41,135 nucleotides of DNA from a virus. Below the pieces are notes generated by a model. The model saw only the letters and a program-made list of their open reading frames with translations, did not search any database and was not told the origin of the DNA. Numbering within the stretch: the stretch's first letter is position 1; every line of letters begins with the position of its first letter. The translations under genes and the position numbers were made by a program. Below, piece after piece: positions 50 to 41,085 of the stretch. The stretch is from the UHGV virus genome UHGV-0094207. The stretch is one strand, 5' to 3'.

Positions 50-1363
50 TTAACTTACTGATTTTAATAATCCTCCCGTACTGCTCTCGTGGCTATGGGG
101 CATCAATGGGGCAAAATCTGCCAGCTTCTGATTGAGCATTGCGATCTGCTCTGCGCTGCTGTCAGCCATCCATGCACCGTAAACATTGAACACCATCTGC
201 GCGCTCGCATGCCCCATCTGACTGGCAATAAAACTCGGGTTTGCACCAGCAGATAATGACCAGCACGCATAAGTATGTCGTGACTGGTACGCCTTTCTGT
301 GTCTGATCCCCGCGCGCTTTAGTGCCGCTTCCCAGGAGTCGCCTACTGAATCGACCCGGTAGATAAATCCGACCTGCTTACTGCGTCTGACCACATGCGG
401 GTTAAAGACGAATGTACACTCATGGTTCACCGAACGGCCATACTCACGTAACTGAACTTCAATGTGATGTTGCCTGCCCAGCCTTGTCATTTCAGCCTGA
501 TTTTTCAGGATACTGATTGCGGGCTGGATAAGATGCACCACTCGATCTGTGCTTGCCTCGGTTTTCGGTAGAGTGAACTCACCAAGTTTCGTATAATTAC
601 GCCTGACGGTAATTGTTCCCGCCTTCAGATCGATATCTTCCCAGGCCAGGGAGACCAGTTCCCCGTGACGCATTCCTGTGTACACTGCTAATGACCACAG
701 GTTTTTAGTCTGCTGATGCCGGCATGCATCTATCAGGCGAATAAATTCATCACGAGAAAGAGGATCTGGTTCTGCCCTGGCTTTTTTCAGAGGCTTAATT
801 CCCTCGAATGGGTTCACCTCTAAGTAACCGTGATCCGCAGCAAACTGAAACATTCCGGCCATTGTCGTCATGTAATAGTTCACAGTAACAACGCTTCGCC
901 CTTTTGCCGGGAATTTGTTTTTCGTCGGATTCTGGTAACCAGTTAGCAAATCTTTCCTGAGATACAGCAATTCCTCTTTGGTTACTGCTGACACCAGGCG
1001 ATTACCTCCGAGCCTCGGCACCATATTCCTTGCGACAGACTCATAGCGATTGAATGCGTTCGCGCAGATTTCCATCCGTTTCAGATCCAGCCACTTTTCT
1101 TCAAGTTCTTTTACTGTAATGTCTTTTTTACTTACACCAAAAGCCTTGAGGTTAGGGGAGTCAGGAAACTGGGTTGCATAATCAAAGGTTCCTGTGCGGA
1201 TGGCAAAACATACTGATGTCCGCAGTTCCCCGGCTATCTTCCTGTTCTTAGAGGTGTCAGGGACACCGAGACTTTCCCTGACACGCTTACCTTTAAAATT
1301 AAACCAGATGCGTAATGTGCCACCGTGGTTTTCGACGCCTGTTGGATATGTGACTTTATCCAT
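50..1363 (-). CDS. int: Tyrosine-type phage integrase with N-terminal arm-binding domain
   Basis: 437 aa. N-terminal 'YPTGVENHGGTLRIWFNFKGKRVRESLG' arm-type domain; C-terminal region with 'TGMRHGEL', 'HTYA' and R/H/Y residues typical of tyrosine recombinases; sits at the prophage edge next to xis. Confidence 0.9.
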   Translation of the reverse strand: MDKVTYPTGVENHGGTLRIWFNFKGKRVRESLGVPDTSKNRKIAGELRTSVCFAIRTGTFDYATQFPDSPNLKAFGVSKKDITVKELEEKWLDLKRMEICANAFNRYESVARNMVPRLGGNRLVSAVTKEELLYLRKDLLTGYQNPTKNKFPAKGRSVVTVNYYMTTMAGMFQFAADHGYLEVNPFEGIKPLKKARAEPDPLSRDEFIRLIDACRHQQTKNLWSLAVYTGMRHGELVSLAWEDIDLKAGTITVRRNYTKLGEFTLPKTEASTDRVVHLIQPAISILKNQAEMTRLGRQHHIEVQLREYGRSVNHECTFVFNPHVVRRSKQVGFIYRVDSVGDSWEAALKRAGIRHRKAYQSRHTYACWSLSAGANPSFIASQMGHASAQMVFNVYGAWMADSSAEQIAMLNQKLADFAPLMPHSHESSTGGLLKSVS

Positions 1364-6621: not shown

Positions 6622-6699
<78 letters not shown>

Positions 6700-7540
6700 A
6701 CTGGAAGCGCACTCCACCTGTTTCACACCTGTCACCCATAACTGGTAAGTAAAGGAGTGCGCTTTCATGTTGTGTTCGCGGGGTCTACTTCCCTCCTGTC
6801 ACGGTTCTTTCCCCGCGTCATCATGTGTTCATTCGGTACATGAAACCCATTTGTCAGGATTCCACCGGCTCCCATCAGTTTTTAAAGACACTCAGATATC
6901 GTCTGGTCTGTGCCGTCTCTTCCGGCTGTCATCCGGGTTGAACTCGCCCTGAACGAGATTGAAGGGTTATAGCCCCTTACGGCATTCACGCCCTCTCACG
7001 TGTGTCGCGTATGCCACGCCAGCGCTAACGAGTTTTAACGACCTTTGCCGTTTGCATCATCTTGTCGCCGCTGTTATCGGTGCGGAACCGCCACTGTCCA
7101 GGACATTTAAAAGGACCGTCTCCAAGTGGTAACTCTTCCAGTCCCGGTAAGCACTCTGCGAAATACTTACCGTGACCGGCTGTTATTCCCTGAAAAAGGC
7201 TGGCGGTTACCGGACAAACGGGAAAACATCGGGCCGCCAGAACAGGGAGTTACTTGTTATTGCTTTGGCCTGCTTTTAACCACATCAGGCGCGGTGGTAG
7301 GTATCTTCGGGCGGGGTGCTAAGGGGGTGATTAGCCCTTGCCCTTAACACTCCTGCTGGTTTTGGTATTCCTGGCTTGGGTATCGCCACCAGCTATAGGA
7401 ATTTGACTACGAGTTGGGGTTAATCAGACCGCGTCTCTGTTACCCCTCCCGAAGACACCTGTCAGCGAATCATCCGGTTATTCATACGCCACCGGCGGCT
7501 ACTTCGTGGGCGTCCTGCCTGTTCGCTGCTGATGAATGGA

Positions 7541-7569
7541 ATCTAACTTAACTTAGCTTTTAGATCAAG
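7541..7569 (-). promoter_or_regulatory. Candidate pL promoter downstream of cI
   Basis: On the minus strand: TTGATC, 17-nt spacer, TAGATT; the spacer contains a CTTAG motif like those in the oR region. Confidence 0.35.
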
Positions 7570-7622
7570 AAAAAACACCAAACTATTCTTAGCTTGATGT
7601 TAAGAGGAAGGTTAGAGGTAGG

Positions 7623-8249
7623 TTAAAGCTCGTACTGAACGCCTTTGACAACTCCAATGATCAGGCAATTACCGTTTATTGAAATGTTTGGATAGCGTGG
7701 ATTTAAGGGAACCAAGAACTTTTGAGGCCCATCGATGACGAGTTTTTTTACAGTAGCCTCGTTTGTCCCATCAAGTCTGGCTACGACTATCTTTCCATTA
7801 AGTGGCTCTGCATCAGGGTCCACTATGACTGTTGCCCCTTCAGGGATTGTCGGAAGACCATTAGGGTTTGTCATCGAATCACCTTTGACCTCCAATGCAA
7901 ATGAGCTATCACCTATCCTGAGTGATGTTTCTACCCACTTATCTACTTCACTGAAAACTTCTGCTGCTTTACATTCTGTAAACTGTCCAGCCTGAACCCA
8001 AGATATCACCGGAATCCTTCGCATCTTGGTTATCAGATTTCCTTCGAATTCAGTGCCATAGAGTATGTAATCAATTGATGTGTTGAAATACTTTGCAAGT
8101 TTCGAAAGTGACTCACCGCCTGGCACATTAATGTCTTTTTCCCAATACCCAACCGCCACATCGCTAACACCACAGAACTTACCCAGTTCTTTCTGCGAAG
8201 TTTTGGTTACGCGCCTGAGAGCTTTGATGCGCTGACCGACAGTTTCCAT
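7623..8249 (-). CDS. cI: CI-like prophage repressor (HTH plus S24 LexA-like peptidase)
   Basis: 208 aa. N-terminal HTH 'QKELGKFCGVSDVAVGYWEK'; Ala-Gly cleavage site in 'WVQAGQF'; catalytic 'KGDSM' and 'VKKL'. Confidence 0.85.
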   Translation of the reverse strand: METVGQRIKALRRVTKTSQKELGKFCGVSDVAVGYWEKDINVPGGESLSKLAKYFNTSIDYILYGTEFEGNLITKMRRIPVISWVQAGQFTECKAAEVFSEVDKWVETSLRIGDSSFALEVKGDSMTNPNGLPTIPEGATVIVDPDAEPLNGKIVVARLDGTNEATVKKLVIDGPQKFLVPLNPRYPNISINGNCLIIGVVKGVQYEL

Positions 8250-8351: not shown

Positions 8352-8579
8352 ATGACAACCGATGACATTGAAAACTACTTCGGCAGTACTGAGAAAGTTG
8401 CCGAATTTTTTGGAATCACAAGCGAGGCCGTTTACCAGTGGCGTAATAGAACTGGTCGCCTAATCCCGAAAGGACGTGCAGCAGAAGCAGCCTATCGGAC
8501 TGGGGGAAAATTGGTTTTCCATCCCGACCTTTACGAAAAGCGTAGCGAAGCTTCAGTAAAACTCAAACCACAGGAATAA
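8352..8579 (+). CDS. cro: Cro-like HTH regulator
   Basis: 75 aa, divergent from cI across the operator region; HTH-like 'EKVAEFFGITSEAVYQWR'. Confidence 0.65.
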   Translation: MTTDDIENYFGSTEKVAEFFGITSEAVYQWRNRTGRLIPKGRAAEAAYRTGGKLVFHPDLYEKRSEASVKLKPQE

Positions 8580-8589
8580 GGGGGGAACC

Positions 8590-9141
8590 GTGGGTAACGA
8601 ACCTATTTGGAAAGTCGAACGTCAGCCTTCCTGGCTGGTGGTAGCGATTAAAAAAACCATTACCGATCTGCCAGGTGGATATGCTGAGGCGGCGGAATGG
8701 TTGGGAGTGACAGAGAACGCATTGTTTAACCGCCTTCGTGTTGACGGTGACCAGATCTTCCCGCTGGGCTGGGCAATGGTTTTACAACGTGCTGGTGGTT
8801 CAACTCATATCGCTGATGCCGTTGCGCGCCATTCTCAGGGCGTATTTGTACCGCTGGCAGATGTTGATGATCTGGATAACGCCGATATCAACCAGCGCTT
8901 GATGGAATCAATCGAATGGATAGGCCGTCATTCTAATTTTGTACGTAAAGCCACGGCTGATGGGGTGATTGACGCAGAGGAGCGCGCTCAGATTGAGGAA
9001 AACAGCTATCAGGTTATCGCGAAGTTCCAGGAGCACGTAGCGCTTCTTTATAGAGTTTTTTGTGTCGCTGAAAAGAGTGACGCCCGCGAGTGTGCAGCTC
9101 CGGGCGCCATGGCGAACAACTCTTCGAGTATGGAGAAATAA
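8590..9141 (+). CDS. CII-like phage regulatory protein
   Basis: 183 aa directly after cro; 'DLPGGYAEAAEWLGVTENALFNRL' HTH-like segment; family assignment from recollection only. Confidence 0.45.
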   Translation: MGNEPIWKVERQPSWLVVAIKKTITDLPGGYAEAAEWLGVTENALFNRLRVDGDQIFPLGWAMVLQRAGGSTHIADAVARHSQGVFVPLADVDDLDNADINQRLMESIEWIGRHSNFVRKATADGVIDAEERAQIEENSYQVIAKFQEHVALLYRVFCVAEKSDARECAAPGAMANNSSSMEK

Positions 9142-9313
9142 TCCGCATGAGCAGTTTAACGGCTTTTGACCGTCTACCGCAACTAAGGATGATCCCGGTT
9201 TCGGGTACTCCGTTGTTTCGGTATGAACGCAGATTATCAAACCGCTTGGTTCCGTGTAACCACAGTAGGGCGGTTTCAATTGTGGGGGTCTACAACCGGA
9301 GGGCAAAACGCCT

Positions 9314-9499
9314 GTGCGCGAACTTAACCGAAGGTTCAAAGACAACCGCGGAGTGCCAGTCCGTGTTATTCGCTGGGAGCCAGAAACACAGCGCGTTATC
9401 TATCTGCGTGATGGCTACCCGCACGAATGCTTCAGCCCACTTGAGCATTTCAGGCAAAAGTTCAGGGAGATAACGGACGACCATGAGCCAGATATTTGA
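9314..9499 (+). CDS. Hypothetical small basic protein
   Basis: 61 aa with GTG start; ends 17 nt into the O-like gene; weak support. Confidence 0.25.
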   Translation: MRELNRRFKDNRGVPVRVIRWEPETQRVIYLRDGYPHECFSPLEHFRQKFREITDDHEPDI

Positions 9500-10505
9500 A
9501 ATCGTTCAATCACTGTCGGGGCAAAGGAATTGCATCACCATTCCGGTCCCGTACCTAGATTATTTCTCCGGCGATCAGCAGGCGCATGCTTTGGGTGCTG
9601 TGCTAAACCAGCTTGTGTTCTGGTCCGGTAAATCAGACCTGAATGATGGCTGGTTTTACAAAGAACACAGTGAGCTGGCGGCAGAGATTCGCGGCGTGAG
9701 TGAAGATCAGGTGCAGCGTCTGGTAAACAAGATTTGTACCCGATGGTTACCAGGGGTTGTTGAGAAGGCCCAGCGACAGGTAAACGGCACTAAAAAGACG
9801 CATTACCGTATCAATGGCGAAGCTCTAATCAACGTTTTATTCCCGGTAACGCTGGATTCCGCAGAATCGCGGAACGGGAAACGTGAAGTCGCGGAACCCA
9901 TTCCGCAGAATCACGGAACCGAAAACGTAGAACCGCGGAACCCTAACCGCGAAGTCGCGGAACCTATTCTCTATACAGATCATTACTCAGATCACCACAA
10001 ACAGATCAGTAACCCTTCTTGTCCGGAAGCTTCGCAACCGGACGCTGAAAGTTCATCTCCTGTTGAACAGTTTCTTGCTAAACATCCTGAAGCAGTGACC
10101 TGGAATGTACCGAAGCGGCAGTGGGGCAGTCAGGATGATTTGACTTGTGCGGAATACCTATGGGTAAAAATCATCGCGATGTACGAGCAGGCCGCTGAAA
10201 GTGACGGTGAAGTAGTCCGACCTAAAGAGCCTAATTGGGCATCCTGGGCAAACGAAGTGCGCCTGATGGTGGCGCAGGACGGCAGAACGCATAAGCAAAT
10301 TTGCGCACTCTTCAAACGAGCTAATCAGGATTCCTTCTGGTGCAAAAACGTCCTCAGCCCTTCAAAACTTCGCGAAAAGTGGGACGAATTAAGTCTGAAG
10401 CTTTCCGTGTCCATGAAACAGCCTACAGGTGATTCACCAGTAGCACGGGCCAGTTATCAGACCGTTGATTACTCACTGCCAGAAAATTCGGGGTTCCGCT
10501 CATGA
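9483..10505 (+). CDS. Replication initiator (lambda O-like) containing the iteron origin
   Basis: 340 aa. N-terminal 'NQLVFWSGKSDLNDGWFYKEHSELAAEI' resembles the O-protein N-domain; a central repetitive linker 'REVAEPIPQNHGTENVEPRNPNREVAEPI' is encoded by the iterons. Confidence 0.65.
   Translation: MSQIFEIVQSLSGQRNCITIPVPYLDYFSGDQQAHALGAVLNQLVFWSGKSDLNDGWFYKEHSELAAEIRGVSEDQVQRLVNKICTRWLPGVVEKAQRQVNGTKKTHYRINGEALINVLFPVTLDSAESRNGKREVAEPIPQNHGTENVEPRNPNREVAEPILYTDHYSDHHKQISNPSCPEASQPDAESSSPVEQFLAKHPEAVTWNVPKRQWGSQDDLTCAEYLWVKIIAMYEQAAESDGEVVRPKEPNWASWANEVRLMVAQDGRTHKQICALFKRANQDSFWCKNVLSPSKLREKWDELSLKLSVSMKQPTGDSPVARASYQTVDYSLPENSGFRS
9856..9970. repeat. Candidate replication-origin iterons
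   Basis: Two 44-bp tandem copies (attccgcagaatc[g/a]cggaac...cgcggaaccc) plus a partial third; six CGCGGAAC-like cores in total. Confidence 0.6.
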
Positions 10506-11380
10506 TGCCAAATAAATATTGCCAGGCGCTGGCAGAACTGCGCAGTAAACCAGCTCACGAATTGAAAGAAGTTGGAGATCAGTGGAGGACACCGGATCTG
10601 CTTTTCTGGGGGATCAACGCGTTATTTGGCCCATTAGTCCTGGACTTGTTCGCTGACGACGACAACGCGAAGTGCCCGGCATGGTACACCGCCGAAGATA
10701 ACGCGCTGACACAGAACTGGTCTGAACGTCTGGATGAACTGGGCGGCGCGGCGTTTGCCAACCCTCCATATAGCCGCTCGCAGTATCACGACAAGCAGGC
10801 GATCACGGGTATGACACACATCATGAATCACACCATGGACATGCGTGAAAGAGGTGGTCGCTATATTTACCTGGTGAAGTCTGCCACAAGTGAAACATGG
10901 TGGCCGGAAGATGCCGATCACATCATGTTTATTCGTGGTCGTATTGGGTTCGATCTGCCTGTGTGGTTTGTACCTGCTGACGAAAAACAGAAACCCACCA
11001 GCGCGTTTTTTGCCGGTGCCATAGCTGTATTCGACAAGTCATGGCGTGGTGAGCGGTTCAGCTATATCAACCGCACAGAACTGGAGGCAAAAGGTCGGGC
11101 ATTTATGGCGCTGGCTCAATTCGCTGTTGGTAAAGAGCAAACCATTGCAGTGCGGACAGCCCAGGAACCTGTAATGCCATTAGAAACTGAGTCACGAATC
11201 TGGCCTCTAGAGGTTGGTCTGGTGTTTAACCAGGTGGAAGGCGTTGACGTATTGAGCGAGGCTCAGCAGAACAAGCTGAAAGCCAACATCAATCAACTCT
11301 GGCTGGAACGAACGGCCACCAGCGAAATCATTACTGTTGCTTCTGAACTTGTTCGCAATATGCGGGGAGAGATCGCGTGA
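10502..11380 (+). CDS. Phage Dam-type DNA N6-adenine methyltransferase
   Basis: 292 aa. 'DQWRTPDLLF' and the catalytic 'FANPPYS' (NPPY) motif. Confidence 0.7.
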   Translation: MMPNKYCQALAELRSKPAHELKEVGDQWRTPDLLFWGINALFGPLVLDLFADDDNAKCPAWYTAEDNALTQNWSERLDELGGAAFANPPYSRSQYHDKQAITGMTHIMNHTMDMRERGGRYIYLVKSATSETWWPEDADHIMFIRGRIGFDLPVWFVPADEKQKPTSAFFAGAIAVFDKSWRGERFSYINRTELEAKGRAFMALAQFAVGKEQTIAVRTAQEPVMPLETESRIWPLEVGLVFNQVEGVDVLSEAQQNKLKANINQLWLERTATSEIITVASELVRNMRGEIA

Positions 11381-16494: not shown

Positions 16495-17952
16495 ATGCAG
16501 GTCACTATCGATGGTGTTCCATACGCGCCTGTCTGCAATTCGGTGTCACGCATAGGAATAGCAATCACAACGCATAATCGCCCTGACGTATTGAAGCGGA
16601 CACTGGCGCAGCATCATCAATTTTTACCGTCCGGCGCGCTCGTGGTTGTCATAGATGATGGTTCAAAACCTGCCGCAGTCGTTCCCGACGGCGTGCAGCT
16701 GCTTCGCAATGAAACATCCCTCGGCATTGTGGCCTCGAAAAACCGAAGCCTCGAAGCGCTGGTGGACGCCGGATGTGAGCATCTCTTCCTGTGGGATGAT
16801 GACGCATGGCCGGTTGCCGATAACTGGCACCTGCCTTACATCGAATCACCTGAGTCACACCTGGCTTACCAGTTTCTCGATCTGGCTGGTCCACGAAAGA
16901 TAAACGATATGACCGTCCTGCACCAGGATGATAAGCATATCGCTTACACCGGGCAGCGCGGTGTGATGCTGTACTACCACCGCAGCGCCATTGAGAAGGT
17001 TGGCGGATTCGATCCGGTATACGGTCGAGGCATGTATGAGCATCCTGATTTGGCGCTTCGGATTTATAACGCTGGCTTAACGTCCTGGGCGTTTGCTGAT
17101 GTGGTTGGCTCTGAAAAGCTGATTCACTCAATGGATGAATACGAAGAGGGCGCGCGCAGCATACCGAGGCCTGAACGTGAAGCGCTCTATAAAAAGAACG
17201 CTGTAATTTACGGGCAGCGCCGGGATTCAGGATATACAGGCTATGCCGAATATCGATCTCAGCGCGACGTGGTAATCACAACGTTGCTTACCAGCCAGCC
17301 AGACCCGCAGCGCGGTACGAAAATGGCGGCCGTATCAGACATGCTGACCAGGTGGGCTGCCTCGCTTCGGAATTGTGGCCGTATTGCGCTGGTGGATGAG
17401 CTGCAGACGGCATCGGCAGACGTTGAGTTGTATCGCGTCCCTGACGTGAAGATGAATGTCTACTTCCGGCGCTGGCTGCATATCTGGCAGCACCTGCGCG
17501 ATCACCCTGAATACCGGTTCGTCTGGTGTACCGATGGTACCGATGTCGAAATGCTCCGCGCACCGTGGGAAGAAATGCAGCCCGGGAATGTTTACGTCGG
17601 TTCTGAACCGAAGATCTACGCCGACACCTGGGCGAAACAGAATCATCCTGAGCGTATCTATCAGGAATTCATTGAAGCGCACCGCGGCGATGTGATGCTT
17701 AATGCTGGTCTTCTGGGAGGCACCCGCGCTGATGTGATGGCGTTCGCTCATGGCATCATCCGTCTTTACTACCGGATCGAGAGTTATCGTTTCTGGAAGA
17801 AAGAACAGGCTGGCGCAGCGGTGGGTGACATGCTGGCGTTCGGTATCGTTGCGCAGTCATTCGCTGACAGGTTGGTCACCGGCCCTCTGGTACATACCGT
17901 TTTCAAAACTGATGGTATCGGTAAGGAGGCAGCATGGTGGAAACACAAGTGA
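16495..17952 (+). CDS. Two-domain glycosyltransferase (N-terminal GT2/GT-A domain plus a second GT-A-like C-terminal domain)
   Basis: 485 aa. N-terminal 'GIAITTHNRPDVLKRTL...VVVIDDGS...LWDDDAWP...GGFDPVYGRGMYEHPDLALR' are GT2 hallmarks; C-terminal half has 'RFVWCTDGTDVEM'. Confidence 0.6.
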   Translation: MQVTIDGVPYAPVCNSVSRIGIAITTHNRPDVLKRTLAQHHQFLPSGALVVVIDDGSKPAAVVPDGVQLLRNETSLGIVASKNRSLEALVDAGCEHLFLWDDDAWPVADNWHLPYIESPESHLAYQFLDLAGPRKINDMTVLHQDDKHIAYTGQRGVMLYYHRSAIEKVGGFDPVYGRGMYEHPDLALRIYNAGLTSWAFADVVGSEKLIHSMDEYEEGARSIPRPEREALYKKNAVIYGQRRDSGYTGYAEYRSQRDVVITTLLTSQPDPQRGTKMAAVSDMLTRWAASLRNCGRIALVDELQTASADVELYRVPDVKMNVYFRRWLHIWQHLRDHPEYRFVWCTDGTDVEMLRAPWEEMQPGNVYVGSEPKIYADTWAKQNHPERIYQEFIEAHRGDVMLNAGLLGGTRADVMAFAHGIIRLYYRIESYRFWKKEQAGAAVGDMLAFGIVAQSFADRLVTGPLVHTVFKTDGIGKEAAWWKHK

Positions 17953-18524
17953 AGTTTGTTGTGGTTGGCCATCATTCCCGTTACGCCTCAGCTGCATTGC
18001 TGGCTGGTGAACTTGGCGCGCACCTTCTTATCGATGAAGGGAATCACGGGGCTAACTGGAATCACCGGCGCGCTATCGAATGGGCTGCTGAGCAGCCTTG
18101 CCGGGTGGTGGTACTGGAAGACGACGCGCTGCCTGTACGTGGATTCAGAGACAAGCTTACGGGCTGGCTGGCTCGTTTCCCTGGCGACATGCTTAGTTTT
18201 TATCTGGGCACCGGGCGGCCACCGCAATACCAAATGCAGATAGCTGAACGCCTGATTAATGCGGATAAGGTGAGGTCTGACTTCATTATGCTGCAACGCC
18301 TGATACATGGCGTGTGCTACAGCATACCGCCTCAAAGCATCAGCCGTGTGCTGTCTCAATGGGACGGCAGTAAGCCTGCCGATTATGCCGTGGGCGATGC
18401 TTATGGTGGCGTTGTCGTCTATCCCTGTTGGTCGCTGGTGGACCACGCAGACGGCGAACCGGTTGAGCGTCACCCTGACTCAGCACCACGAACAGAACGC
18501 CGCCGGGCGTGGAGGTTAGCCTGA
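17934..18524 (+). CDS. Hypothetical protein, possible GT-A/GT25-like glycosyltransferase
   Basis: 196 aa; 'KFVVVGHHSRY...CRVVVLEDDALP' resembles the N-terminal strand and acidic motif of LPS-type glycosyltransferases; overlaps the upstream gene by 19 nt. Confidence 0.35.
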   Translation: MVETQVKFVVVGHHSRYASAALLAGELGAHLLIDEGNHGANWNHRRAIEWAAEQPCRVVVLEDDALPVRGFRDKLTGWLARFPGDMLSFYLGTGRPPQYQMQIAERLINADKVRSDFIMLQRLIHGVCYSIPPQSISRVLSQWDGSKPADYAVGDAYGGVVVYPCWSLVDHADGEPVERHPDSAPRTERRRAWRLA

Positions 18525-24691: not shown

Positions 24692-24904
24692 ATGAAACTG
24701 ATTGCACTTAAACCGATTTATTTCGGCGGTACCGTCGTTACTGAGGGGCTTCCGCTGGAAACTCTGGAACAGCACGGTCGCGAGCTCATCAAAAAAGGCT
24801 ATGCGATGCTCGATGAATCAGAAAATCCTGCAGAGCAGGAACAGCAGCAGGAACAGCAGCAGGAACAGCCCGAAGTAAAAGCGGAAAAAAAGGCGAAAAA
24901 ATAA
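24692..24904 (+). CDS. Hypothetical small head-module protein with Q/E-rich repeat tail
   Basis: 70 aa; C-terminus '(QEQQ)x3...KAEKKAKK' encoded by a 12-bp tandem repeat. Confidence 0.4.
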   Translation: MKLIALKPIYFGGTVVTEGLPLETLEQHGRELIKKGYAMLDESENPAEQEQQQEQQQEQPEVKAEKKAKK

Positions 24905-37158: not shown

Positions 37159-37833
37159 ATGGCTAAATATGGCGCATTGATTTCATTACCTAACGGGAAC
37201 CCTTTTATCACGCCTGATTCCACACCAATGACGCTTTACCGGAAAGTCACTGTAAACTCAACTTTTGGAGGGGATTTTAACAGTGCTTCGGCGTCCGTGA
37301 CTGTCGACGGTCAGAAGGGAGGGATTGCATTTGCACGAACCAGCGCCCCGGCGAAGATATCAGCTTCAAAAAGTGGCAACACGTTCAGTGTTGATGCGTC
37401 TAATTACAGAGGTTCGGCTTTCGTGCTGGAGGCGTATTTTTTTGCTATATATCCGCTCACCCTTCCTGCCTGGGGTGTGGCTATATGGGATGCCGAAGGG
37501 ACACTGGTACTTACGAATGAGTCCCGGGTATTAAGCGACCTTACAACTATAGGCTCACCCGGCGCTGCAACGGGTGGGCTTAACATCGATACATACATGG
37601 CAGGCAAATGGGCCGTAAATCCGATGGGGCTGGGGTCTGTTCTTCTGCATGCTGGTTCAGCACCTGGCGGACAACCAATAATCCAGCCTGTGGATGTGGG
37701 AACGGGGTGCTTCAATGAAGGTGTAGGAACAAGAATAAAAGGACTTTCATCAACAACAGCAAGTGGTTCTTCAGTCGGAACGACGAATAGCGGGATTGTA
37801 ATAACGGCGATAAACACAGCCGCATATGATTAA
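37159..37833 (+). CDS. Hypothetical protein downstream of J
   Basis: 224 aa, Gly/Ser/Thr/Ala-rich; contiguous with the preceding ORF. Confidence 0.4.
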   Translation: MAKYGALISLPNGNPFITPDSTPMTLYRKVTVNSTFGGDFNSASASVTVDGQKGGIAFARTSAPAKISASKSGNTFSVDASNYRGSAFVLEAYFFAIYPLTLPAWGVAIWDAEGTLVLTNESRVLSDLTTIGSPGAATGGLNIDTYMAGKWAVNPMGLGSVLLHAGSAPGGQPIIQPVDVGTGCFNEGVGTRIKGLSSTTASGSSVGTTNSGIVITAINTAAYD

Positions 37834-37941
37834 ACCGATCGATTTAAACGATCAATTTAAGAATATTGATCTATTAAAACTATTTTTATTATTCAATGCC
37901 ATTGGTTATTTTTTGTTTAAATAATTAACTCTGGTGTCGAA

Positions 37942-39781: not shown

Positions 39782-40024
39782 ATGATGCCACGACGCAGCG
39801 ATATTGAAATAGCCTGGTATGCTTCGATACAGCAGGAACCAAATGGCCGGAAGACCGTCACCACGCAACGGTTTGTCCAGGAACTGAGCAAGGTTAACTG
39901 GAACTGGACAATGAAGCAGGCCAACGAATGGATCGAGTGGTATGTGACAACCTTCCGCGATGTATCAACGCAGGAAGGGGAGAACCGTACCTTTCAGCTG
40001 TTCAATCCAAACGGAGGACTATAG
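39782..40024 (+). CDS. Hypothetical protein, first gene of the divergent SOS operon
   Basis: 81 aa; purine-rich RBS before 'MMPRRSD'; stop 2 nt before the UmuD'-like start. Confidence 0.45.
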   Translation: MMPRRSDIEIAWYASIQQEPNGRKTVTTQRFVQELSKVNWNWTMKQANEWIEWYVTTFRDVSTQEGENRTFQLFNPNGGL

Positions 40025-40026
40025 CC

Positions 40027-40416
40027 ATGGGCTTCCCTTCACCTGCCAGTGATTACGTTGAAACAAGGATCTCCCTCGATCAGCAGCTAATCAGCCAGTC
40101 CGCAGCGACTTATTTCATGCGGGCATCGCGTTCACATTTCAGGGAAGGGATAATCCAGGGGGCGCTGCTTGTTGTTGATGCGTCACTTTCTCCCTGTGAT
40201 GGCTCGCTGCTGATATGCGCGATAGACGGAGAATTCAGGATCAAGCGATATCGGACTCATCCTCAGCCCCACCTGGTTAATCTGGAGAACGGGAGAAGGG
40301 AGGCGCTGCCAGCAGATGATGACGGTTACAGTTCTGCACCCGCTATATTCGGGGTGATCACGTACATCATTAATGATGCCAGGAACGCGGAGTTTGATGA
40401 CTGCCCGGTGATGTAA
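40027..40416 (+). CDS. UmuD'-like S24-family protein lacking the N-terminal pro-segment
   Basis: Starts 'MGFPSPASDYVETRISLDQQLI', which matches UmuD directly after its Cys24-Gly25 cleavage site; conserved Lys in 'GEFRIKRY'; the Ser-region is altered ('ASRSHF'). Confidence 0.65.
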   Translation: MGFPSPASDYVETRISLDQQLISQSAATYFMRASRSHFREGIIQGALLVVDASLSPCDGSLLICAIDGEFRIKRYRTHPQPHLVNLENGRREALPADDDGYSSAPAIFGVITYIINDARNAEFDDCPVM

Positions 40417-41085
40417 TCATATTGGCTGTATTAGTTCGGAGCCCTGATGTTTCACATTCCCGACGGCACGCGTCACGGCATGCCATATAAATTTATCAGC
40501 CGGCACGGAACCGTCGGCTGCAATTTCCGCCGCTTCTTTCCCTCCAATGTCCTGCCTCATCCATTCTCGAGCAGCATCTGGTGACAGTACCAGTGGCCGC
40601 CTATCGTGAATATCTACCAGTCCTTTGTCTGCAGCAGCCGTCACTATCAGGAATCCTTCTGCTTCATCTCCACGTTCGAATGGTGTGCTGCCGATCGCCG
40701 CCATGAATATCGGCTGGCCATCGGCTCGATGAATGAAGTAGGGCTGCTTTTTGTCACCTTCCTTTTTCCATTCATACCAGCCATCAGCAAAGCAAATGGC
40801 ACGACCATGCTGCCAGAGTGGTTTGAACATTCTGCTGGTGGCCGCAGTTTCAGAGCGTGCGTTAATTAGCGGTGGTTTATCCCACCATCCGGGGGCGTAT
40901 CCCCAGATAACTGGATCAAGATGGAGTTTCTCGTCACGTTCGCTCAGAAGCAGAACTTTGGTGCCTGGCGCGACATTAAAACGTCCGATCGGTTCGGGAT
41001 CGTAAGGGATATCGCGTTCTGCTTCTTCAGTAAGCAGAGCGAGATAGTCTTCACGCGTCATTGATTGTGAAAAGCGTCCACACAT
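40417..41085 (-). CDS. yedK: SRAP-family protein (YedK-like abasic-site processing protein)
   Basis: 222 aa starting 'MCGRF' (catalytic Cys2 hallmark of SRAP/YedK); stop codon directly abuts the UmuD'-like stop. Confidence 0.8.
   Translation of the reverse strand: MCGRFSQSMTREDYLALLTEEAERDIPYDPEPIGRFNVAPGTKVLLLSERDEKLHLDPVIWGYAPGWWDKPPLINARSETAATSRMFKPLWQHGRAICFADGWYEWKKEGDKKQPYFIHRADGQPIFMAAIGSTPFERGDEAEGFLIVTAAADKGLVDIHDRRPLVLSPDAAREWMRQDIGGKEAAEIAADGSVPADKFIWHAVTRAVGNVKHQGSELIQPI

Follow-up and report, generated by a model that had tools for sequence, protein, structure and literature searches.

What does a lambda-O-like initiator gene do with a tandem repeat in its middle, and how can it start replication when no helicase loader follows it? 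Both questions are raised by the virus genome UHGV-0094207, whose whole stretch of 41,135 nt was analysed (referred to as the window). It is an almost complete lambdoid prophage, from a Citrobacter host. Its replication initiator gene (9483-10505, plus strand, from the open reading frame (ORF) list and PHROG) encodes a protein of 340 amino acids (aa) with lambda-O-like architecture, which is 99% identical to a Citrobacter freundii entry named 'hypothetical protein'. To judge from the sequence, positions 9856-10043 are quite probably a lambda-type intragenic replication origin of this Citrobacter prophage, located in the part of the gene that codes for a disordered linker, with five iterons, an AT-rich heptamer tract and a short palindrome in that order.

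A first-pass annotation of this DNA had described two and a half 44-bp tandem repeats, and these were recovered by Tandem Repeats Finder, with a period of 44 at 9856-9943 (2.0 copies, 86% matches, score 132) and at 9859-9964 (2.4 copies). The same program gave a period of 22 at 9863-9964 (4.6 copies), and a repeat search showed three in-register 44-nt copies starting at 9856, 9900 and 9922. The core CGCGGAAC was found exactly 6 times in the window, compared with 1.68 expected from shuffles, and four of these six copies were located in the array (9868, 9890, 9934 and 9956). The core at 9912 is CACGGAAC, with one mismatch to CGCGGAAC, which makes five direct cores on one strand at exact 22-nt steps (9868, 9890, 9912, 9934 and 9956), and two inverted GCGGAA half-sites were located at 9857 and 9901. 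The cores claimed by the annotation were thus real, but their number had to be corrected from six to five direct cores plus two inverted half-sites.

Each iteron is an 18-bp dyad or half-dyad on GCGGAA(C), and the 22-nt phase corresponds to about two helical turns. Iteron 1 (9856-9877, plus strand like the other four) contains the 18-mer TTCCGCAGAATCGCGGAA (9857-9874), a perfect 6+6 dyad. Iteron 2 (9878-9899) contains AAACGTGAAGTCGCGGAA (9879-9896), with a conserved right half-site and a degenerate left one, and iteron 3 (9900-9921) contains TTCCGCAGAATCACGGAA (9901-9918), with a dyad at 5/6 positions. Iteron 4 (9922-9943) contains AAACGTAGAACCGCGGAA (9923-9940). Iteron 5 (9944-9965), containing AACCGCGAAGTCGCGGAA (9945-9962), matches the dyad at 4/6 positions; it adjoins the AT-rich tract and is the best-conserved unit inside the specificity group of the window. 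The full dyad TTCCGC-N6-GCGGAA is represented by units 1 and 3 and partly by unit 5, and the degenerate-left form AAACGT-N6-GCGGAA by units 2 and 4. The 44-nt super-period results from this alternation of full dyads with units having a degenerate left half. An antisense ORF over the array (9837-9983, 48 aa) was taken as a chance ORF.

The annotation had also placed the repeats inside the initiator gene as the coding sequence of a linker, and this was confirmed: the array lies within ORF 9483-10505 and encodes aa 125-161 (DSAESRNGKREVAEPIPQNHGTENVEPRNPNREVAEP), all modelled with pLDDT <50. The predicted disorder of this region, its variable length and the repetitive look of its peptide (..REVAEP..REVAEP) speak for a peptide-level repeat, which would have arisen by slippage to provide a flexible linker, without DNA-level function. 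However, a period of 22 nt is not divisible by 3, and copies of the core CGCGGAAC in successive units therefore fall in three different frames, with the translations S-R-N/P-R-N, A-E-(P) and (H)-G-T. The units are moreover dyad-symmetric, and their half-sites co-vary across relatives while the peptide changes.

The relatives were 28 loci taken from a collection with one genome per species, together with prophages and phages of E. coli, and the array and the tract were compared over 29 loci, that is, the window and 28 relatives. Absence of the repeats from homologs, together with a lack of DNA binding, had been named in the annotation as evidence against an origin; in all 29 loci, an array with 22-nt phasing was present directly upstream of TATACAGATC, usually with five units and sometimes with two or six. 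TATACAGATC itself was exact in 28 of the 29 loci, and the remaining one had TATCCAGATC. The unit sequence is TTCCGCagaatcGCGGAA in the group of the window, TTCGGCAgtatTGCCGAA, TTCGGCacaaacGCCGAA, AACGGCTctcAAGCCGAA and GGAACGGCgaaggtGCCGTTCC in other groups of relatives, and AACGTCGAAAGTG(A/C)GGAA in Proteus, Providencia and Morganella. By group, the half-site pairs are TTCCGC..GCGGAA, TTCGGCA..TGCCGAA, TTCGGC..GCCGAA, AACGGCT..AGCCGAA and GGAACGGC..GCCGTTCC. Over the 29 loci, a change in the left half-site was paired with the complementary change in the right one, which is the expected behaviour of a site bound by a symmetric dimer. The 22-nt phase, the dyad-symmetric units and the half-sites changing together across relatives support the idea that the repeats act as protein-binding DNA sites rather than as a peptide repeat.

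The number of iterons also differed between alleles. Two iterons were found in alleles P0019 (C. braakii, 318 aa) and P0100 (288 aa), compared with five in the window (340 aa) and P0050 (310 aa), and in both pairs the difference is exactly 22 aa, i.e., 66 nt or 3 units. As 66 nt is the smallest in-frame multiple of the 22-nt unit, a change in iteron number that preserves the frame has to come in threes. In the protein, the CCGC group differs from the CGGC group in the helix at 74-88 (QRL compared with RKA/RRA). At the same prophage position, a homolog whose N-domain is unrelated has another array in this place, of a 15-nt unit (TCTGACGCGTCAAAA, 4.3 copies), and SfII is similar. One relative (L011, contig DAINBV010000046.1) comes from a metagenome-assembled genome labelled Geobacteraceae and is essentially identical to an E. 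coli prophage (L001), with identical iterons, AT-rich tract and linker and a 98% identical downstream gene; its presence there most probably reflects contamination or faulty binning.

Directly right of the iterons, an AT-richer tract at 9966-10013 is the putative DNA-unwinding element. Its AT content in the window, taken over 9966-10013 or over 9963-10010, is about 60-63%, compared with 50% for the whole gene, and the mean over 24 distinct relatives was 69%. The tract contains three (A/T)CAGATC heptamers (9975-9981, 9987-9993 and 10001-10007) and with them three Dam sites, the GATC sequences at 9978, 9990 and 10004. Read on the bottom strand, the heptamers form three tandem units of 12-14 nt, each starting with GATCTG, and this start was found in all 62 bottom-strand units of 24 distinct sequences. 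Two to three heptamers were present in all 29 loci, 12-15 nt apart, or 26 nt apart if the middle copy was lost. Translation of the first two gives T-D-x and that of the third Q-I; after the Asp, the amino acid changes (H, L, Q, P), and the first base of its codon is always C. Codon identity was 0.90 at the L-Y-T-D codons, compared with 0.43 for identical N-domain residues. By this conservation, the heptamers are a DNA-level feature. Adjacent heptamers in two frames, with nearly complete conservation of synonymous sites, also stand against the slippage explanation, which we regard as extremely improbable.

The heptamers were then compared with other origins. They were not found in lambda or phi80, and as a general mark of loader-less origins they were rejected, as the SfII-type, HannyBb and Vibrio solo initiators are without them. 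The CAGATC heptamers belong to the origin cassette that travels with the N-domain family of the window.

A candidate third part is a short palindrome, GTCCGG-N11-CCGGAC (10021-10043), located where ori-lambda has its right-arm palindrome. In many relatives this place is taken by TTCGTCGCAGAATTCTGGCGAATCC..GAC, a segment that is homologous at the nucleotide level to the right-arm palindrome region in lambda (GTCAGAG-N14-CTCTGAC) and phi80. These neighbours of the array bear on the view that the iterons are initiator sites for autoregulation, copy control or incompatibility (titration or handcuffing) only, with the true origin elsewhere. Plasmid iteron arrays are generally known to have such roles. 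However, no second substantial or comparable repeat array was detected by Tandem Repeats Finder in the 41-kb window, the AT-rich tract and the palindrome typical of ori-lambda directly follow the array, the right arm in relatives is homologous to those of lambda and phi80 at the nucleotide level, and the position in the gene matches the annotated ori of both phages. A purely regulatory array is therefore very unlikely in our judgement.

The initiator protein was examined by profile and structure searches. Its PHROG matches were phrog_9773 (E 3e-68) and phrog_391 (E 5e-63), both 'replication initiation O-like', which agrees with the O-like gene of the first-pass annotation as far as the C-domain is concerned; the N-domain is not that of lambda O. 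More than 1000 homologs were detected, and the initiator in this group is mostly annotated 'hypothetical protein'; databases also name relatives 'replication protein 15', after gene 15 of phi80. No match to the initiator was obtained in Pfam (E <=0.01, including Phage_rep_O) or NCBIfam, and sequence and profile searches of the PDB gave nothing meaningful. An AlphaFold model was built on 49 homologs. The N-terminal domain (aa 1-122, 9483-9848, plus strand) is predicted to be a winged-helix origin-binding domain. Over aa 1-120 its pLDDT is about 63-93, with 63-64 for aa 1-20 and 75-93 beyond, and the model shows helices and a beta-hairpin at 93-110. When the full model was searched against the PDB with Foldseek, the matches were weak (E 0.04-1) and were to winged-helix regulators of the MarR/PadR/HxlR type. 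With hhalign, the N-domain could not be aligned to that of lambda O, and no similarity between them was detectable.

The inter-domain linker (aa 123-188, 9849-10046, plus strand) holds the whole proposed origin. AlphaFold gave pLDDT <50 for residues 123-167 and 169-188, so the predicted disorder coincides with the origin, and the linker length is variable among homologs. The C-terminal domain (aa 189-311, 10047-10415, plus strand) is homologous to the C-domains of lambda O (BLASTP E 6e-26; hhalign probability 99.8%) and phi80 gp15 (BLASTP E 2e-23). Modelled alone, it reached a pLDDT of 92.6. Foldseek showed no structural neighbour of the C-domain in the PDB (best E 3.5), and the matches in BFVD were C-termini of phage replication proteins. 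A DnaD-like or replisome-organizer label (phrog_2514, 6493 and 4880), which comes from PHROG profile matches and short tblastn matches to proteins of Gram-positive phages, was rejected together with the PHROG label 'DnaD-like helicase loader', as neither a Pfam match (such as DnaB_2 or Phage_rep_org_N) nor a PDB match to the DnaD/DnaB(Bsu) DDBH folds went with it.

The same N-domain and origin were found fused to at least three unrelated C-domains, namely the lambda-O type, PF09524 and a third type, and the N-domains joined to the PF09524 C-domain were 85-98% identical to that of the window. Such fusions are classic lambdoid mosaicism, in which the origin travels with the DNA-binding domain. 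Two alternative C-terminal tails (window 10416-10502; P0036, P0050, P0110 and P0114) were observed on all three C-domain types, and the choice of tail was independent of which gene follows the initiator. The short tail reads ..D(Y/T)xIPxGFR(G/S), with ..IPxGFRG in the window, and the long tail, of about 60 aa, reads ..ERDxAY..W(N/R)xIW..AA with a W..W helix. These tails look like modular docking motifs.

In lambda, the C-domain of O recruits P-DnaB. The first-pass annotation had noted that no P-like loader follows the initiator here, and this held in every search. Lambda P and phi80 gp14, compared by tblastn with all frames of the window, gave nothing (best E 0.8), and family scans of the early, accessory and some late genes of the window showed no helicase or loader. 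A Pfam census of the downstream genes covered 78 ORFs, up to three per locus, in 28 loci (the window and 27 relatives), and contained no lambda_P, IstB/DnaC or DnaB. Its matches were Dam (20), C5-methylase (9), MT-A70 (2), D12 (1), RusA (10) and Ant/Rha (7). The next gene in the window is a methyltransferase, as annotated: a phage Dam-type N6-adenine DNA methyltransferase (10502-11380, plus strand; PF05869 E 7e-45, TIGR01712 E 7e-62), whose start is overlapped by the stop of the initiator gene and which occupies the place of P in lambda. Among the first three ORFs after the initiator, a DNA methyltransferase was found in 22 or more of the 28 loci. The Dam protein of the window has a C-terminal extension of roughly 90 aa, common to the E. 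coli versions. In other loci the initiator is often followed by a large fusion gene of DNA-modification domains (L001 7111-10375, L009 5720-8815, L006 5080-6864, and others); that of L009 joins C5-methylase, PAPS-reductase-like and Dam parts in one 1031-aa ORF, and that of L006 joins C5 and Dam.

A prophage in this state might be a defective remnant that lost its P-type loader and cannot replicate alone, or borrows P from another prophage, the more so as a P-type gene follows the lambda-O-type C-domain in lambda, phi80, Klebsiella phage 2b and PhiR12_2. However, the loader-less arrangement is kept in all 28 loci, which span many genera, and the other gene sets of the window (integrase, immunity, lysis, packaging and tail) are complete. 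The C-domains of the solo clade are 46-100% identical among themselves and only about 35% identical to the P-associated ones. The loader-less module was also found in the propagating phages SfII, SfIV, Providencia PSTRCR_117lys, E. coli HannyBb and Vibrio NF and K68, of which SfII, SfIV and HannyBb form plaques, and because of this the module is an initiator-only lambdoid origin type and not a defective remnant, an explanation to which we give hardly any credence. SfIV is UV-induced and plaque-forming, and it has no methylase (PMC3851460). A phage Dam is therefore not required for the loader-less module, and was rejected as a requirement.

For an intragenic origin of this kind, we propose the following mechanism. 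Initiator dimers would bind the five iterons through the winged-helix N-domain and assemble into an O-some-like complex, which would strain and open the adjacent AT-rich tract of GATC heptamers. The host would supply the helicase as DnaB-DnaC, which the initiator would capture directly, through its C-domain or its C-terminal tail. More speculatively, host Dam or the neighbouring phage Dam may methylate the three GATC sites and in this way make melting easier or set the time of firing. Rep proteins of iteron plasmids (pSC101 RepA, R6K pi and RK2 TrfA) are single winged-helix initiators that use iterons beside an AT-rich element and the host DnaB-DnaC. Unlike them, the initiator of the window shows no sequence or fold match to the Rep_3 type, and its origin has no DnaA boxes and lies inside a coding sequence. 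On the analogy with these Rep proteins, direct recruitment of DnaB-DnaC by the initiator is plausible, and we put it somewhat below an even chance. A more specific version of P-independent firing, in which the lambda-O-type C-domain or the tail docks DnaB-DnaC onto the element of GATCTG-initiated, 13-mer-like units and Dam methylation, set by the methyltransferase found a few genes further on in most relatives, gates melting or re-firing, is offered tentatively and is rather unlikely as it stands.

The main alternative for the helicase step is a cryptic phage factor, for example DUF4222, or a PriA route. The origin would be as described, and the helicase would be loaded either by an unrecognised phage factor, with the DUF4222 protein and the non-catalytic C-terminal extension of the methyltransferase as candidates, or by a PriA-dependent primosome on a transcription-generated R-loop. 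The DUF4222 ORF of the window (9314-9499, plus strand, 61 aa; PF13973, E 4.5e-17) is overlapped at its end by the initiator start. DUF4222 was detected by tblastn in 19 of 32 loci; in 18 of them it overlaps or adjoins the start of the initiator (L001, L002, L005, L008-L012, L014-L017, L019-L021 and L030-L032), across different N-domain types, and it may be a replication accessory. The frequent downstream methyltransferase, the conserved extra segment of the Dam proteins and the 'primosomal protein' annotation of the SfII initiator also point this way. On the other side, DUF4222 has just 61 aa and was not detected in the remaining loci, SfIV propagates without a methylase, and no family scan ties DUF4222 or the methyltransferase to helicase binding. 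We therefore consider this alternative unlikely, though it deserves to be kept in mind. In another E. coli prophage, DUF4222 precedes a Rha gene and an HTH initiator.

Several points weigh against the origin at 9856-10043 or against parts of its proposed mechanism. No close relative with experimentally shown binding, unwinding or origin firing was found, and the direct recruitment of DnaB-DnaC, drawn from the plasmid analogy, is pure inference. The winged-helix assignment of the N-domain draws on weak Foldseek matches (E above 0.04). N-domain identity tracks iteron identity (Mantel r 0.73, reached by 0 of 5000 permutations), which speaks indirectly for the iterons as sites of this domain, but common ancestry and the physical linkage of the two confound the correlation, and it is not proof. 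The AT content of the tract in the window is far below that of lambda, and the arms of the palindrome are just 6 nt long. Three GATC sites in 40 nt are not exceptional within the window, which has four such clusters, and WCAGATC was observed 14 times compared with 9.7 expected, so the heptamers are meaningful because of their cross-species conservation and not because of counts within the window. No DnaA box (TTATCCACA, <=1 mismatch) was found within 9300-10600, the nearest being at 8871 inside the cII-like gene, and because there is none in or next to the initiator gene the plasmid analogy is incomplete. SfIV, which has no methylase, likewise shows that the module can do without a phage Dam.

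The proposed origin was further compared with known systems. In lambda, as is proposed for the window, ori lies in the middle of the initiator gene, with dyad-symmetric iterons of ~18 bp spaced by about two helical turns, an AT-rich tract and a palindrome in order, a layout also described in PMC7466680. According to the same paper, the iteron number varies in lambda-type phages, with 4 in lambda and 6 in Stx phages, and the linker is tolerant. The annotated lambda ori has 4 iterons with a spacing of 20/24/23, compared with five at 22 in the window. The C-domain of lambda O is homologous to that of the window, whereas its N-terminal DNA-binding domain cannot be aligned. The window further differs from lambda in its iteron sequence, in a far less AT-rich tract made of GATC-containing heptamers, and in having no P gene. 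In phi80, four gp15 sites are annotated inside gene 15 with a spacing of 20/21/21, and the right arm, TTCGTCCGAGAATTCTGACGAATCC, resembles that of many relatives of the window. The lambda-P homolog gene 14 is directly downstream of gene 15 in phi80 and is absent from the window, and the N-domain and iteron sequence of phi80 are different as well.

We know of no member of the N-domain family of the window with a mapped origin, nor of any description of a tract of GATCTG units. Tandem GATC units beside an initiator array are a feature that the window has in common with the 13-mers of oriC and the GATC heptamers of P1 oriR, which are unwinding elements sensitive to methylation and adjoin initiator sites, and this is a resemblance only. 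On the bottom strand, GATCTGTnT.. of the window resembles the middle 13-mer of oriC, GATCTGTTCTATT, as given in an oligonucleotide in PMC7466680, and the bottom-strand unit of one relative is GATCTGTTCTTTT. Replication of the P1 plasmid needs methylated DNA (Abeles & Austin 1987, cited in PMC2865523). Unlike oriC, the window has no DnaA boxes here, and its units are not T-rich. Two module types of the classification by Weigel & Seitz (2006), initiator-helicase-loader (IL) and initiator-helicase (IH), are cited in PMC11131426 and PMC5499656. An 'initiator-solo' class is said to have been named beside them in 2006; the term was not found in a literature search. The window fits a 'solo' module, in which an O-like initiator gene carries the iteron origin and the phage encodes neither helicase nor loader, and which occurs in viable phages; the scans of the window for such genes covered the early and accessory genes and some late genes.

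The remaining genes of the window follow a lambdoid order. The integrase gene (50-1363, minus strand) is followed by exonuclease and ParB-like genes, and the immunity region contains a LexA-like cI repressor (7623-8249, minus strand), cro (8352-8579) and a YmfL/cII-like regulator (8590-9141). After Dam, the order is RusA, Ant/Rha, DUF968-HNH and Q, and then lysis genes, glycosyltransferase morons, HNH, terminase, portal and tail genes. A tRNA-Arg(TCT) gene at 6622-6698 (minus strand; Rfam 68.8 bits, also ARAGORN) is located within the prophage, flanked by the leftward early genes on one side and the cI repressor on the other, and the Rfam scan of the window showed nothing besides this one tRNA. 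From the tRNA to cI, about 900 nt (approximately 6700-7600) have no ORF of >=90 aa on either strand and no Rfam family at E <=1; this stretch could represent a gene in decay, a long non-coding RNA or, at the immunity-region position, a moron not recognised as such.

Further features were observed in the late region. Two glycosyltransferase/glucosyltransferase moron genes (16495-18524; phrog_1579 and phrog_854) between the lysis cassette and the HNH-terminase block look like a gtr-like cassette for O-antigen modification (serotype conversion) in an unusual place. A perfect tandem repeat of 12 nt in three copies (AGCAGGAACAGC, 24834-24869) is located in the gap between the end of the major capsid gene (24652) and the start of the next ORF (24904). 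Another, of 13 nt in 2.3 copies (TTAAACCGATCAAT, 37830-37860), contains GATC sites and is located just 3' of a membrane-protein moron (37159-37833), upstream of the tail-fibre gene. Past the tail fibre, the right end of the prophage carries on the minus strand a UmuD-like gene and a gene for a 222-aa phrog_1599 protein (39928-40416 and 40417-41085).

Taken as an origin, the locus provides a concrete map of five iterons, a GATC-heptamer tract and a palindrome for widespread prophages and phages of Enterobacterales, which could be used in prophage annotation, in the prediction of replication specificity and incompatibility from the iteron type, and for phage-derived replicons. It joins an already known initiator-only type of lambdoid origin and is an ordinary element save for the absent loader gene. 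What is known of the mechanism of lambdoid initiation comes almost wholly from the O-P system, and the locus raises the question of how a lambda-O-type C-domain works in the many viable phages that have no P. Natural domain swaps for dissecting it are offered by one N-domain and origin combined with three C-domains and two tails. If the P-independent reading were true, the lambda O C-domain would originally have served to capture the host helicase, and P would have been added later.

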